Assembly (NCBI GenBank): GCA_963774445.1
Contig: CAVZFC010000035.1
Location: forward strand, 69,470 to 133,469
Direction: 5' to 3'
DNA length: 64,000 nucleotides
From: an uncultured delta proteobacterium
GTDB taxonomy: Bacteria; Myxococcota_A; Polyangia; Haliangiales; Haliangiaceae
Position numbers and translations under genes: made by a program. This document shows positions 10,938 through 62,946 of the stretch, piece after piece (within the stretch, counting starts at the first letter, position 1; each line of letters begins with the position of its first letter). The notes under the pieces are model-generated. The model was not told the origin of the DNA. It saw only the letters and a list, made by a program, of their open reading frames with translations, and did no database searches.

Positions 10938-11813
10938 CTAGCTGCGCCAGCGCTGGACGCGGGCGACCAGGTCGCGGTCGCCGAGGCGCTCGCACAGGGC
11001 GGAGAGAGCGTCGCGGTCGGCGCCGCGCCAGGCGAGGGCGTCAACATCTTCGTCGAGGGGGACGTCTTCGCGCAGGATGGCCAGGGCGCGGTAGAGGCGG
11101 GCGTCGTCGCGGCGCTCAGCCAGGGTGGCGGCCAGGCCGGCGGCGCCGCGGACCTTGACGTCCCAGTCGGCGGCGTCGTCGGGGATGTTCTCGAGGGTGC
11201 CGTAGCGAGACAGCACGGTGGAGGTCGACTTGGCGCCCCAGCGGGGCAGGCCGGGGATGCCGTCGGCGGTGTCGCCGACCAGCGCCAGGTAGTCGGGCAC
11301 CGACGCCGGTGGGACGCCGAGTCGGTCGACGACGCCGGCCTCGCCGCGGACGATGTCGCGCATTCGATCCCAGGTGACCACGCGGTCGCCGCGGACGCAC
11401 TGCGACAGGTCTTTGTCAGGGGAGCAGATCACGACGCGGTCGACGCGCGGGTCGGCGGCCGCGATGGCGGCGGCGGCGGCCAGGGCGTCGTCGGCTTCGA
11501 ACTCGACCATCGGCCAGACGACCAGGCCGAGGGCCCGCGTGATCTCCTCGGCCAGCTCGAACTGATCGCGCAGGGCCGGCTCGATCCCTTCGCCGGTCTT
11601 GTAGCCGGCGAACAGCTCGTTGCGGAACGACTCGATGACGTGGTCGTAGGCGACGCCGACGTGAGTGACTGCCGGATCGCGCAAGAGCGACAGCAGCGAG
11701 CGGGCCAGGGCGCGGGTCGCGCCGACCTCGCGGCCGTCGGGCGCGATCGACGATGGCGCGCCGTAATAGGCGCGAAACAGCTCGTACGTGCCGTCGACCA
11801 GGTGGACGTTCAC
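10938..11813 (-). CDS. 5'-3' exonuclease (FEN/Pol I N-terminal-like; Xni/ExoIX-type)
   Basis: VNVHLVDGTYELFRAYYG… and …LVGDTADGIPGLPRWGAKS are 5'-3' exonuclease motifs. A GTG start is inferred at about 11813. Confidence 0.7.
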   Translation of the reverse strand: MNVHLVDGTYELFRAYYGAPSSIAPDGREVGATRALARSLLSLLRDPAVTHVGVAYDHVIESFRNELFAGYKTGEGIEPALRDQFELAEEITRALGLVVWPMVEFEADDALAAAAAIAAADPRVDRVVICSPDKDLSQCVRGDRVVTWDRMRDIVRGEAGVVDRLGVPPASVPDYLALVGDTADGIPGLPRWGAKSTSTVLSRYGTLENIPDDAADWDVKVRGAAGLAATLAERRDDARLYRALAILREDVPLDEDVDALAWRGADRDALSALCERLGDRDLVARVQRWRS

Positions 11814-58635: not shown

Positions 58636-59130
58636 TCACACCTGCCCGTGACTCTCGAGGAACCAGAGATCCTCCTCGAGCCCGCGCAGCATGGTGACCA
58701 GCAGATCCTCGGACGCCGGCTCGCCGATCTCGGCCATGGTGCGGATGTCGTTGCGCACGCGCTCGGTCAGCGTCTGGTAGCGCTCGGCCAGACAGTGAAT
58801 GTGTGCGCGCCCGTCGACCGCGCGCGTGTCGTACTCCGGCAAGATCGACGACGTCGCCGCCATGCGGATCGTACCGGCCGCGTAGCCGCCGAGCATCGAC
58901 ACGCGCTCGGCCAGCGTGTCGCCGTACGTCCGCAGCCGGTCGGCGAGCCGATCGAACAGCTCGTGCCGCGACACAAAGTGCGGACCCTTGATGTTCCAGT
59001 GTGCCTGCTTCACCTGCGAGTACAGATCGATCGTGCTCGCCGTGAGCACGTTGAGCTCCTCGATGATCGGCGCGCGCCGCTCCGGCACCACCGCGATGCG
59101 TGTGGGAAAACGATTGGCTGTCATGTTCAT
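58636..59130 (-). CDS. dps: DNA starvation/stationary-phase protection protein (Dps, ferritin-like)
   Basis: Ferroxidase-site residues (…HWNIKGPHF…). RBS (aggagg). Start at MNMTANR. Confidence 0.85.
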   Translation of the reverse strand: MNMTANRFPTRIAVVPERRAPIIEELNVLTASTIDLYSQVKQAHWNIKGPHFVSRHELFDRLADRLRTYGDTLAERVSMLGGYAAGTIRMAATSSILPEYDTRAVDGRAHIHCLAERYQTLTERVRNDIRTMAEIGEPASEDLLVTMLRGLEEDLWFLESHGQV

Positions 59131-59275
59131 GCAAACTCCTCCTTTCGCGAGTTCGCCCGCTGCTGGTGCACGCACCGGGCCAAGCCCGAGAGGTGCCGCC
59201 TGACGGCCTCCAGGATCGTCGGGCCTATGGCGCAGCGTCACATGTGGCGTAATGACACGGCGCGCCCGTCGCCGG

Positions 59276-59797
59276 CTAGCCGTCGAGCTCGCCGTCGGCG
59301 TCGCCGTTGGGCGCGATCCGCACGGCGGTGCCGCTGGCGACCAGGAACAGCATCTCCTTGCCGCCGCCCGAAATCTCGCTGTAGGCGAGACTCACCGCGA
59401 TCACCGCGTTGGCCCCGACCGACGCCGCCTCACCCCGCAATTCGGACAGGCAGGTCTGGCGAGCACGCCGCAGCAACTTCTGCGTCGTTCCGCTTCGGCC
59501 CCCGATCGCATCGGTGAGACCACTGAGTAGCTCTTTGAAGATGCTCACACCGAGCACGCATTCCGCGGTCACGATGTCGATGGTCTCCTCGACGCGATAG
59601 CCCTCGAGCCACGGCGCCGTCGTGAGCACGACCGCCGAGCTGCCCGCGACCTTTTCCTGCACGCGCACGTCGATCTCGCGGACTGACTCGCACTCCTCGC
59701 AGATCGCCGTGTTCTGAAAATCCGACGGATACTCGAATCGGTGGGGCGTTGACTGCCCGCAGGCGTCGCAGTGGAGGTTGGTTCGATATACGGCCAT
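59276..59797 (-). CDS. N-terminal zinc-ribbon fused to YbjQ/UPF0145 (putative heavy-metal-binding) domain protein
   Basis: HCDACG…CEEC zinc ribbon. YbjQ-like core (…ANAVIAVSLAYSEISGGGKEMLFLVASGTAV). Confidence 0.7.
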   Translation of the reverse strand: MAVYRTNLHCDACGQSTPHRFEYPSDFQNTAICEECESVREIDVRVQEKVAGSSAVVLTTAPWLEGYRVEETIDIVTAECVLGVSIFKELLSGLTDAIGGRSGTTQKLLRRARQTCLSELRGEAASVGANAVIAVSLAYSEISGGGKEMLFLVASGTAVRIAPNGDADGELDG

Positions 59798-59814
59798 GGC
59801 GGACCGTAGCACCT

Positions 59815-60339
59815 TCACTGCGCGCAGTTGGTGATCCACGCATTCAGCAGTGACTGGTCGCTCACGGTCGGGCGGGGCAGCGGCTCCACGCCGATCGGCT
59901 GTGCGGGCGGCATCTCTTCATGGACGATGAGATCGTAGATCCGCGAGACAGCGGGGGCGCCCGGCGCCACGAACCGCATCCCCTGGGACGGGTCGTCGGG
60001 ATCGGGCACCGTTGCAGACCGCGCGGTGGTGAGCCGCGCCGGGTCGAGGACGAAGTCGAACGGCGGCTGGCCCTGGCGAGCGCCGTCGTCTCCGCCGCCG
60101 TGGCAGCCGCCGCAGGTGGCGTCGAGCATGGCGCGGGTGTCCAGCCAGGTCGCCTCGCACGCATCGGTGGTCGTGGTGCCGTCGGGAAGCTCGATCGGCG
60201 GCGTGTCCAGTGCGGGTCCGGTCGGCTCGTCCGAGCCACTGACCGATTCGATGTCGAGCTCCTGAAAGCATGCGGTTGCAAGTGGCGCGCACAGCGCCAA
60301 TAGCAGGACAGTGCGGCGGGCAATGCGTGGGCGGCTCAA
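59815..60339 (-). CDS. PSCyt1-like mono-heme c-type cytochrome lipoprotein (CxxCH)
   Basis: Signal peptide with lipobox (PLATAC). CGGCH heme motif. …SRIYDLI…MPP…LLNAWI match PSCyt1 hallmarks. Confidence 0.6.
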   Translation of the reverse strand: MSRPRIARRTVLLLALCAPLATACFQELDIESVSGSDEPTGPALDTPPIELPDGTTTTDACEATWLDTRAMLDATCGGCHGGGDDGARQGQPPFDFVLDPARLTTARSATVPDPDDPSQGMRFVAPGAPAVSRIYDLIVHEEMPPAQPIGVEPLPRPTVSDQSLLNAWITNCAQ

Positions 60340-61289
60340 AATTCACCTCGGATGCTGGCGATGCCGCCGCCGCGCGTGGGCTCGACGTCGACCCGATACG
60401 GCGACCAGGCGCGCCACAGCAGATACGCGCCCGAGGCGAGCGCGAAGCCGCCGACGCCCAGCGAGACGTTGGCCGAGATGTACAGCTTGCGCACGTGCTC
60501 GAAGCTGGCGCGCGGGCAGTTGGGCGAGCACGCGCTCAGCGCGGCGTTGTCCTGGCGGCCCCAATAAGTGAGCAGGCCGTAGCCGGTGACGCCTACCGCG
60601 CCCAGGCCGATCAGCAGGTAACCGGGCAGCCGAGACCGCCGCCTGGTCGCGGTGGTGAGCTCCGCCGGCTCGGACACCAGGTCCTGGCGCACCCGCTTGC
60701 GCGACGCCGGCTTCGCAGCTGCCTTCGCCGGTGTCGCCGCGTGCGGTCTCTCGGCCTGGCCGCGCGTGTGCAGCTGCACGTCGATCCGCCGATTGCGCTC
60801 GCCCTGGCGCGCGACGATCTTGCGCCGGGCGAACACGCCGTCGGCCTCGGTCTCGAACGCGAGCTGGTGCAGCCCCGGCTCGAGCTCGATCGCCAGCCCG
60901 TCGATCTCCTCGGCGACCATGACGCCGTCCAGCCAGACGTTGACCTCGACGACCGGGTCGCCTGCGTCGTCGGTCACCGCCGGGACCACCGACGGGATGT
61001 CGTCGCCGATGCGCGAGTACCCGACCGTGCACTGGTGCTCCAGGAACTGGCCGCACGCCGGGATGCCGCACCGCCGCAGCAGCGCCTTGGCCTCGAACAG
61101 CTGTCCGTCGCGCTCGGCGCGCTGCGCTTCGAGGTAGGTGCGCTTGCACGCGCGCCCCGCGTCGCCGCGCTGACCAGTGCGCGGTGACGTGCGGTGCGCG
61201 GTCTTGCGATGTCTGCTCGGTCGGGCCGATGCCGTGGATGCCCACAAAAGGGCCGCCGCGGTCGCGCACGCCAGCGCCACGCGCGTCAT
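60336..61289 (-). CDS. hypothetical secreted Cys-rich protein with C-terminal double-TM anchor
   Basis: Signal peptide (MTRVALACATAAALLWASTASA). Cys-rich N-terminal module. Lys/Ala/Pro linker. Two C-terminal TM helices flanking CSPNCP. 4-nt overlaps with both neighbours. Confidence 0.5.
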   Translation of the reverse strand: MTRVALACATAAALLWASTASARPSRHRKTAHRTSPRTGQRGDAGRACKRTYLEAQRAERDGQLFEAKALLRRCGIPACGQFLEHQCTVGYSRIGDDIPSVVPAVTDDAGDPVVEVNVWLDGVMVAEEIDGLAIELEPGLHQLAFETEADGVFARRKIVARQGERNRRIDVQLHTRGQAERPHAATPAKAAAKPASRKRVRQDLVSEPAELTTATRRRSRLPGYLLIGLGAVGVTGYGLLTYWGRQDNAALSACSPNCPRASFEHVRKLYISANVSLGVGGFALASGAYLLWRAWSPYRVDVEPTRGGGIASIRGEF

Positions 61290-62770
61290 GGCGTCGCCTC
61301 CTGCTCGGTGATCACGAACTGGCTGAGCACGTGGCTGACGTTGAGCAGCTTCGGCTGCAGCACGAGGACACCGTCGCGATCCTGGTCGAGCGGGATGCCG
61401 CGCGCCGTGATCGCCTGCGTGCTGTGGCACGAGAAGCAGTTGGGGAATGCAGCTGGCGACTGGGTGAACGATTCCATCGCCGTGCTCGACAGCCGGTCCT
61501 CGCCGGCCAGGATGGAGAAGTCGCTGTCCGAGCCGTTCTTGGTGATGTCGTTGACGTACCCCGACTGGTCGAAGAACGGGCTCGATTCGTCGTTTTGCAG
61601 GCTGGCGTCGTTGGTGAAGTACTCCGGCTTGTCCATCCACAGGGCACCGACCAGCCGGTAGTGCCCGCGCTTGTCGGTAGGGTCGACCGACGCGCTGGCG
61701 AACAGCGCCTCGACGTTGGCGTTCAGCGACGAGACATCATCGTCTGGCTCGATCGTGCTGGACTTCGACGCGGGGAACATGCGGTAGATCGAGGTCTGCT
61801 GCTCGGGGAACTTCTGTGTCGCCTCGTCGAGCTGCAGGTCGGCCTCGCCGATCGCCTGATTGGCCGCGTTCGCGGGTGTGCCCGCGTGGTACAGGACGAA
61901 GTCGGTGTCGCTCACCGCGCGGTCGTCGTGCAGGTTGTTCGGATCGGCCGGGTCGGGATTCAGGTCGGTGGTCGGCGCCACGTCGCGGTGACCGTCGGAT
62001 GCGCGGGTGTCGGGCGTGCCGTTGCTGTGCTCGAACGTGCCCCAGATGAACTCGGGGTGGCCGGGGAGTGTGAACACGACGTGCAGCGCGAGTAGCCGCG
62101 CGGTGACCGGGCGTGGTGTGGTCCGGTCCTCGACGATGCGGTGGTTGGCGTCCATCGACAGGGTGGGGACCGTGGTCTGGATGGTGATGTAGTCGTCGGT
62201 CGAGTCGCCTGGCTCCACGATCTGCCAGGCAGACTTGAACTCGACGACGCCGGCGGGGAAGAACAGCTTGGGGTCAGCGTCCACGATCCCCTGCGCGGTG
62301 CGCAGTCCGTTCGCGTCGATGAAGTCGGCGAATGCCTGGTTCACGTGGATGGCGTAGAAGATCGGGTTGCCGTGCTGATCGATCAAGATCTGGCGCCCGC
62401 CCGCCTGGCGGAGGAATCCGAGCTCCGACCACGTGGCCGGCGCGGGATGAACCGAATCGAACAGCGTCTGGATGGTCGGATACGACAGGATCGCCGGCTT
62501 GCCCCCGGCGTCCGGCTGCATCGCGATCAGGAAGTTCTGCCAGGCGCCGCGATAGAACGCGCACTCGGGCGCCGGGTGGGGCAGGGGTTTGAACAGATCC
62601 AGCGCCGGTGTGTTGGGAAGCCACTCCGCGCTCGCGGCGCAGACGTCCTCTCCCTGCGGCTCGGGGTTGAACTCGAACGGGTCGTGGCAGGCCGCCACGG
62701 CGAGGAGCAGAAGCGCTGCCGCGGTCGAGACGCGGTGGCGAGCCAGGTCTTGTCGCGCCAGTAAAGACAC
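61286..62770 (-). CDS. hypothetical lipoprotein with C-terminal CxxCH heme-binding motif
   Basis: Signal peptide with lipobox (LLAVAAC). Single CFSCH near the C-terminus. No family I recognise. Confidence 0.55.
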   Translation of the reverse strand: MSLLARQDLARHRVSTAAALLLLAVAACHDPFEFNPEPQGEDVCAASAEWLPNTPALDLFKPLPHPAPECAFYRGAWQNFLIAMQPDAGGKPAILSYPTIQTLFDSVHPAPATWSELGFLRQAGGRQILIDQHGNPIFYAIHVNQAFADFIDANGLRTAQGIVDADPKLFFPAGVVEFKSAWQIVEPGDSTDDYITIQTTVPTLSMDANHRIVEDRTTPRPVTARLLALHVVFTLPGHPEFIWGTFEHSNGTPDTRASDGHRDVAPTTDLNPDPADPNNLHDDRAVSDTDFVLYHAGTPANAANQAIGEADLQLDEATQKFPEQQTSIYRMFPASKSSTIEPDDDVSSLNANVEALFASASVDPTDKRGHYRLVGALWMDKPEYFTNDASLQNDESSPFFDQSGYVNDITKNGSDSDFSILAGEDRLSSTAMESFTQSPAAFPNCFSCHSTQAITARGIPLDQDRDGVLVLQPKLLNVSHVLSQFVITEQEATP

Positions 62771-62946
62771 AGTGCTGTCATCAGCAGCAATCGCTGATCC
62801 ACCCGAGCATCACGCTGTAACTGTCCGAAATGTGCACACTCGCGGGTCGCGCGGCCGAGGGCCCCGATGGCCGCAGCCATCGGAGCCGGGTAGGTTTGCC
62901 CCGGGCAGGACCGTCGACATCGGGGAGGTCCTTCCCCTTGTCGCGC

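Follow-up and report, generated by a model that had tools for sequence, protein, structure and literature searches.

The 64,000-nt stretch analyzed here (hereafter the window; positions 69,470 to 133,469 of contig CAVZFC010000035.1, assembly GCA_963774445.1), from an uncultured delta proteobacterium placed in the Haliangiaceae, carries on its minus strand a three-gene cassette that, judged from gene neighborhoods, recurs as a conserved unit across soil Myxococcota. We refer to its genes as A (494 aa), B (317 aa) and C (174 aa), and to the two genes that follow them as D (YbjQ) and dps. Our comparisons tip slightly toward A-B-C being a cell-envelope heme redox module. A first-pass annotation of this DNA had proposed that A to D plus dps form one periplasm-to-cytoplasm metal or oxidative-stress module. 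That proposal is not supported: across 24 genome loci and 80 metagenome loci, A has no conserved partners other than B and C.

The genome loci encoding A homologs comprised 23 from Myxococcota-type metagenome-assembled genomes (MAGs) and one from an Amaricoccus MAG, and the 80 further metagenome loci came from a scan with a diverse alignment of A. By tblastn, about 22 of the 24 genome loci have homologs of B and C adjoining A in the same orientation, arranged as A-B-C, B-C-A, B-A-C or C-A-B. Retention through rearrangement is a classic signature of a functional unit, and we consider A-B-C to be one on that ground. All-against-all clustering of the flanking open reading frames (ORFs) at the 24 genome loci found no conserved neighbors beyond A, B and C, the other clusters being alternative frames of these three genes, and tblastn detected no D, Dps, Lhr or RNase D near the trio at the same loci. 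The MAG DATLVT01 has three separate trio copies on three contigs (L006, L007 and L011), and such multiple copies suggest paralogous diversification. Among the metagenome loci, B and/or C accompany A homologs of at least about 47% identity (29 loci) and are almost never present beside those of 45% identity or less (51 loci). Several trio copies, or extra B-like or C-like genes alongside, were also seen at L013, L015, L017 and L051.

Inspection of ORFs in the window placed five consecutive minus-strand genes at 58636-62770, preceded by a conserved upstream block:

61286..62770, minus strand: gene A, 494-aa lipoprotein with a GTG start; the cassette's signature member
60336..61289, minus strand: gene B, 317-aa membrane protein with an ATG start
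59815..60339, minus strand: gene C, 174-aa probable lipoprotein monoheme cytochrome c with a TTG start
59276..59797, minus strand: gene D, 173-aa zinc ribbon-YbjQ/UPF0145 fusion, cytoplasmic; frame open up to 59839
58636..59130, minus strand: dps, 164 aa; independent neighbor
62787..62801, minus strand: candidate sigma-54-type -24/-12 promoter, TGGATCAGCGATTGC, 16 nt before the GTG of A
62864-62883, minus strand: inverted repeat CCGATGG-N6-CCATCGG in the conserved block upstream of A
62831-62838, minus strand: palindrome TGTGCACA in the conserved block upstream of A

Third-position GC of 0.84-0.91 in the five frames, together with clear homologs, indicates that these are real genes rather than high-GC artefacts, and the plus-strand ORFs overlapping them are the usual shadow frames. 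The earlier description of four consecutive minus-strand ORFs followed by dps is thus confirmed by coordinates, third-position GC and strong homologs.

The A/B junction (...GCC ATG A..., an ATGA) and the B/C junction (...TTT TGA G..., a TTGA in which C starts at TTG) are true 4-nt overlaps, and both are retained in the closest relatives, L027 and L028. AGGAGG and GAGGTG, which resemble Shine-Dalgarno sites, precede the starts of B and C by 6-7 nt, GAGGTG lying 6 nt upstream of the TTG of C; this TTG start and its 4-nt overlap are kept in L016/L028 and L027. Translation of the three genes is probably coupled by way of these two overlaps. The claim that every junction overlaps by 4 nt holds for these two, whereas the GTGA proposed between C and D is doubtful. 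Besides ATG 59797, D could begin at GTG 59812 or 59818, but GTG 59818 is not conserved in L027, in which the frame of D differs relative to the stop of C and the corresponding GTG is out of frame with D. The L027 gene call and the source annotation of the window's own contig both begin D at the ATG (MAVYRT..., 173 aa). The most likely start of D is ATG 59797, giving a C-D gap of 17 nt that is still close enough for co-transcription, and D is probably co-transcribed with C. Tight packing and probable co-transcription, as first annotated, are supported. The public annotation starts A at an internal GTG (Val25; window 62699-62770), and in the resulting 470-aa call the signal peptide is lost and the lipobox Cys becomes residue 4. 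We favor the upstream GTG at 62770 because relatives conserve the N-terminal sequence.

D and dps are clear members of the YbjQ/UPF0145 and Dps families, but they are neighbors of the cassette rather than components of it. D has an N-terminal four-Cys zinc ribbon (CxxC...CxxC) in addition to a YbjQ_1 domain (PF01906) matched over the full profile (E 1.9e-26, 93.1 bits against a 23-bit cut-off), which confirms the predicted zinc-ribbon-UPF0145/YbjQ fusion. The dps product matches NCBIfam NF006975 (157.2 bits, cut-off 114) and the PF00210 ferritin-like domain (E 1.5e-22). An ortholog of D (80% identical) follows C in L027. In L028, which is on the same contig as L016, a 134-nt gap after C (11488-11620) holds only the last ~50 nt of D, a clear sign of a recent deletion that left A-B-C intact. 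From the intact gene in L027 and the remnant in L028 we infer that D joined the cassette in the ancestor of a small clade and was later lost once with A-B-C unaffected. Apart from that remnant, D stands beside the trio only in the window and L027, none of about 100 other loci having it near A; it is best described as a clade-specific, dispensable add-on at the 3' end, outside the conserved cassette. L027 and L028 are syntenic with each other and not with the window: A-B-C-D is followed by a PEGA-domain gene in L027, and A-B-C, the gap and then the same PEGA gene follow one another in L028. The PEGA gene (L027 4918-6180; L028 11621-12883) encodes a 420-aa double-PEGA-domain protein.

The dps gene begins 145 nt past the stop of D on the same strand, confirming its reported placement within about 150 bp, and has its own ribosome-binding site, AAGGAGGAG. 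About 40 nt before its start, a GG-N10-GC element, TGGCCCGGTGCGTGC (window 59168-59182, minus strand), is compatible with a separate dps promoter. Adjacent to the trio only in the window, dps appears to be a separate neighboring gene. The five-gene proposal held that the hemes handle a metal or oxidant outside the cell while YbjQ and Dps act inside; the single strand and short spacers speak for it, as do the retention of D after C in L027, the bona fide iron/peroxide protection role of Dps and the association of distant A homologs with H2O2-producing enzymes described below. Synteny largely refutes it, however, given that D is lost from L028 and missing from most loci and that dps occurs nowhere else near the cassette; the ribosome-binding site and spacer of dps also count against it, and 'heavy-metal-binding' is only a family name for YbjQ, for which a literature search found no functional study. 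We therefore regard the five-gene module as very improbable. The oxidative-stress side of the idea may survive on other grounds, through distant A homologs encoded with LodA-like oxidases, but the data lend no support to the YbjQ/Dps link. For annotation, the operon-style packing of YbjQ and dps here is incidental.

Protein A has a signal peptide with the lipobox LAVAAC28, whose Cys is invariant in 45 sequences, and a single CxxCH in the C-terminal motif FPNC445FSC448H449, confirming the earlier description of a lipoprotein with one C-terminal CFSCH. All 45 close and all 37 diverse homologs compared keep the CxxCH, which was also found in 67 of 69 full-length metagenomic A ORFs. The diverse alignment reaches homologs of only about 30% identity, and its invariant positions include C70, W182, H238, E240, W243, H248, Q319, R330, N350, W378, E433, C445, C448 and H449, so that the motif H238-x-E240...W243...H248 is fully conserved; C44, K179 and H230 are nearly invariant, as are M432 and H480. 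We infer that A carries one covalent c-type heme on its CxxCH. The prediction that A and C are both exported CxxCH proteins is supported by their signal or lipobox sequences and by the invariance of the motifs.

At least 680 homologs of A share 55-87% identity with it, all labelled hypothetical, and a full scan with a hidden Markov model recovered 1,597 clusters at 50% identity, 790 of them with E ≤1e-10. Conservation across Polyangia and Kofleriaceae is 55-70% identity. Neither A nor B matched Pfam or NCBIfam (45 A homologs were also scanned, with E up to 10), and A had no match among all Protein Data Bank (PDB) sequences, either singly or as a 45-sequence profile, which bears out the suggestion that A and B belong to no characterized family. 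The di-heme cytochrome c peroxidase/MauG family (PF03150), with two CxxCH motifs, was likewise not matched by A, which has one. The family of A is thus large and strongly conserved, yet it has no counterpart in Pfam, NCBIfam or the PDB, and "hypothetical protein" is its sole annotation.

C has a lipoprotein-type signal, LATAC24, with the Cys present in at least 90% of sequences. Its lipoprotein status is probable and less certain than that of A, the residue at -3 being an atypical Ala. The motifs C76-G-G-C-H80 and E142-M143-P-P are invariant, and the combination of a CxxCH, the downstream Met143 and a small exported domain is that of a class I-type monoheme cytochrome c. Compared with PDB sequences, the C family profile found cytochrome c domains of CcoP (E 6e-5 and 2e-4). 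C shares with PSCyt1 (PF07635) a CxxCHG start and a ...PG.p..S....MPP...WI... tail; 22 of 27 C homologs gave weak matches to this domain (17-20 bits against a 22-bit cut-off) and the homolog P0182 bears a precomputed PF07635 tag, but C of the window had no match at E ≤1. Of the description of C as a PSCyt1-like CGGCH lipoprotein, the CGGCH and the signal stand, and the PSCyt1 assignment stays below the Pfam threshold. "PSCyt1-like monoheme cytochrome c" seems a fair description, although formal membership of PSCyt1 fails. PSCyt1 is usually found at the head of large DUF1549/DUF1553 proteins, whereas C forms a separate lipoprotein. A literature search found no functional study of PSCyt1, and here an otherwise functionless domain type gains a defined protein partner. 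One lineage, represented by L002 (10839-12026; identical to L009), joins the C-type cytochrome domain in a single protein with a phosphatidylethanolamine-binding-protein (PBP) domain (PF01161, E 2e-13).

B opens with a signal peptide, after which come a three-helix module holding four invariant Cys (41-97), a beta-sandwich (100-172), a disordered linker, two hydrophobic helices of about 35 residues (221-254 and 260-295) joined by a tip with an invariant C254xxxC258, and a C-terminal beta-hairpin ending G-x-F. All six Cys are invariant in the alignment, and the structural model has a predicted local distance difference test score (pLDDT) of 81. The claim of a secreted Cys-rich protein with a double-transmembrane C-terminal anchor is therefore confirmed. 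A profile of B gave only noise against all PDB sequences, and any role we assign to B is a guess. The beta-sandwich looks PEGA-like; searching L027 and L028 with B (tblastn, E ≤0.01) matched only B orthologs.

An AlphaFold2 (AF2) model of A built with the 45 sequences had a mean pLDDT of 79.5 and a predicted template modeling score of 0.83. Foldseek comparison of this model with the whole PDB returned members of the P460/c'-beta family as all of the top seven matches, the best with E 0.029 and probability 0.89. These scores are individually weak and all derive from this one model, and P460/c'-beta is the only family giving consistent structural matches. P460 sequences likewise carry one CxxCH near the C-terminus, as seen in an alignment of eight (verified 2JE2, one further PDB sequence and six plasmid genes of the family), and because this feature is shared independently of the fold comparison, a chance match is unlikely. 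The Pfam Cytochrome_P460 profile did not match any of the 45 A members even at E 10, and hhalign of the A alignment against the eight P460 sequences was not significant (probability 1%, only the CxxCH aligned). Since sequence conservation across the P460/c'-beta superfamily is almost nil (PMC11928373), these failures leave the relationship possible but unproven. We consider it rather likely that the core of A is a P460-type heme domain with large insertions.

Proteins of the P460/c'-beta family (Cytochrome_P460; PDB 2JE3, 6HIU, 7S5O, 7EAD) are, like A, exported, and their CxxCH is likewise single and near the C-terminus, where in P460 it supplies the proximal His; the heme of A is predicted. 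Their subunits are built on a five-stranded antiparallel beta-sheet, which the predicted beta-sheet core of A may resemble. Cytochrome P460 proper has a Lys cross-linked to a five-coordinate high-spin heme, and in A the near-invariant K179 lies on a predicted strand. They differ from A in being small soluble periplasmic proteins of about 150-190 aa, usually homodimers, whereas A is a lipoprotein three times larger, at 494 aa, in which an insertion of about 190 residues separates the sheet from the CxxCH. Sequence or profile similarity between the two is undetectable, and A has an invariant HxE...W...H signature of its own and comes with two dedicated partner genes. If A does have this fold, the range of the fold would be greatly widened, as it has so far been regarded as confined to small proteins from nitrifiers, methanotrophs and few other organisms. 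A collinearity by eye between FPxGxxxxK of A and FPDGTxxVKE of P460, together with a W-A strand, was dropped after hhalign preferred another register.

Distant A homologs have a different genomic context. A small PSCyt-like gene (~110 aa) directly follows A in 27 of the 43 distant loci with at least 400 nt of downstream flank (within L066-L111, e.g., L074 9456-9797 and L070 2220-2546). Its product lacks a CxxCH and keeps an invariant His, a Trp, an M-P...G-P motif and a terminal W-I..G-C-P, and in P0342 this domain is fused to the C-terminus of A (residues ~490-602). The small partner is possibly a relative of C without the heme-attachment motif, and the pairing of A with it appears to be ancient.

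Genes for a LodA-like protein and then a LodB-like flavoprotein follow A on the same strand in nine of the 20 distant loci with at least 2.5 kb of flank, three of the nine being near-identical, and the spacing is often only 4-30 nt. The LodA-like genes match both LodA_N (E 6e-47) and LodA_C (E 1e-34; PF17990 and PF18417). LodA/LodB-like genes were noted at L070-L072, L091, L092, L099, L101, L103, L104, L112 and L113. Thus distant A members are encoded immediately upstream of lodA/lodB-type operons, whereas LodA/LodB-like genes are absent from the window and from all ~50 cassette-type loci. According to passages of a LodA survey, LodA-type enzymes, which use cysteine tryptophylquinone, are H2O2-releasing oxidases, and natural fusions of some of them to catalase-like heme domains occur (PMC4417212), and the passages of that survey that were searched mention neither a cytochrome partner nor an association of this kind. 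The link provides a testable handle on function, either peroxide removal or electron acceptance, and suggests a partner for quinoprotein oxidases of a class that is poorly understood.

L027 and L028 share with the window a conserved 176-nt stretch ahead of A, although the genes preceding it differ (three-way alignment). It includes TGGATCAGCGATTGC, a GG-N10-GC element of sigma-54 type conserved in both relatives, and the inverted repeat, which shows a compensatory change in L028 (CCGAGGG...CCCTCGG). The start of A has no Shine-Dalgarno site, and the leader would be only about 5 nt. TGG-N8-TTGC precedes the first cassette gene at 6 of 23 loci (~0.5 expected), and a relaxed sigma-54 pattern, loosened after inspection of the data, does so at 11 of 23 (~1.4 expected). 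These counts are no more than suggestive of a sigma-54-type promoter upstream of A. It is possible that the inverted repeat and TGTGCACA are sites for a putative regulator (an enhancer-binding protein). Scans of the region against Rfam and for sigma-70 promoters and terminators yielded no informative hits.

Taken as a heme redox module, the cassette might work as follows. A would be the working subunit, a lipoprotein with one covalent c-type heme on its C-terminal CxxCH, and its His-x-Glu...Trp...His cluster would probably form the heme pocket or a second metal site. C would be the small PSCyt1-like monoheme lipoprotein that passes electrons to or from A, and B would tether both at the membrane, with its disulfide-stabilized helical module and beta-sandwich in the periplasm and its two helices as a membrane hairpin. 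A regulated promoter ahead of A, probably dependent on sigma-54, would drive transcription of all three. The heme of A would react with a small oxidant, with electrons supplied by C. Such a substrate (H2O2 first, with NO or NH2OH as alternatives) is favored because of the P460/c'-beta-like core, the many invariant polar residues and the distant-homolog operons with H2O2-producing oxidases, but this is the weakest step and we hold it to be doubtful. In bacterial cytochrome c peroxidase, a periplasmic c-type heme enzyme reduces a small oxidant with a small monoheme cytochrome c as donor. The likeness to the A-C pair is a functional analogy only: the peroxidase has two hemes per chain and is all-helical (PF03150), whereas A has one CxxCH, a beta-rich core and no sequence match to it.

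Several points weigh against this interpretation, which rests on computation. Residues 425-454 of A, around the CxxCH, have pLDDT below 50 and are the only long low-confidence stretch of the AF2 model, although low confidence would be expected at a site needing its cofactor. B has no recognizable cofactor motif, and the small partner, which resembles the C-terminal half of C, does so no further than in shared motifs (E 0.05 by hhalign, and 0.006), so that homology to C lacks statistical support. The LodA link is restricted to A homologs of 45% identity or less, which occur without B and C. M432 and H480 could make the heme of A six-coordinate, and A would then be a pure electron carrier and not a catalyst.

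That last point leads to the alternative we take most seriously, in which A is a ligand-sensing or purely electron-carrying cytochrome and forms with B and C a small electron-transfer chain or a membrane gas or redox sensor, for example a c'-type NO/CO-binding protein whose state is relayed via B. Cytochromes c'-beta bind ligands and are not enzymes (PMC11928373), M432 and H480 are potential sixth ligands, sigma-54-type promoters imply signal-dependent control, and three cassette copies in DATLVT01 would be in keeping with diversified sensor or uptake families. Yet only about 27 residues of B lie on the far side of the membrane and B has no known output domain, no regulator gene is conserved beside the cassette, and the invariant polar residues H238, E240, H248, R330, Q319, N350 and E433 suggest a reaction center more than they do a simple carrier; we consider this alternative unlikely, with a real minority share. 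An improbable option is that A is a maturation or accessory factor for protein-derived quinone cofactors, or an electron acceptor for LodA-like enzymes, and that the cassette serves an unlinked target. MauG, a diheme protein, matures tryptophan tryptophylquinone, and the position of A directly upstream of LodA/LodB-like genes at nine of the 20 informative distant loci would fit such a role. A has, however, one predicted heme site rather than two, no LodA-like gene lies near the ~50 cassette-type loci, and LodB alone suffices for cofactor formation in characterized systems (PMC3948610).

It is also conceivable that A is a non-heme lipoprotein, an HxE...H metal enzyme or binding protein, whose CxxCH binds a metal or forms a redox disulfide. 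The invariant H238-x-E240...H248 resembles a 2-His-1-carboxylate set, the CxxCH region was not placed by AF2, and A has no sequence match to any cytochrome family. On the other hand, the full C-x-x-C-H is invariant down to ~30% identity, which is typical of heme c and not needed for a disulfide; A is exported to the compartment in which heme is attached; and the proteins that match it best in structure bind c-type heme and have the motif at the same terminal position. We judge a non-heme A very improbable. Within the heme redox module reading, a more specific version, a long shot at present, is that A founds a large third branch of the P460/c'-beta fold: a ~500-residue lipoprotein heme enzyme whose invariant His-x-Glu...His cluster would be a distal catalytic site or a second, non-heme metal center beside the heme c, with a dedicated PSCyt1-type partner, and which in other phyla would serve as the heme partner of LodA-like oxidases. 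If true, this would be a new type of envelope enzyme converting peroxide or N-oxides.

No known rule is broken by the heme redox module, since heme modules of the periplasm are widespread and there is nothing unusual about YbjQ or Dps. What is new is the unannotated A family, its dedicated partners and an unreported association with LodA/LodB, and the tie to a rare fold is plausible but unproven. If A is a P460-fold heme protein, the abundant soil Myxococcota would own a dedicated envelope heme module. In the window, an Lhr helicase gene (WH4_Lhr, E 4e-35) has its 3' end upstream of the cassette on the minus strand, and an RNase D-type gene (plus strand) and an aconitase gene (minus strand) are located downstream.

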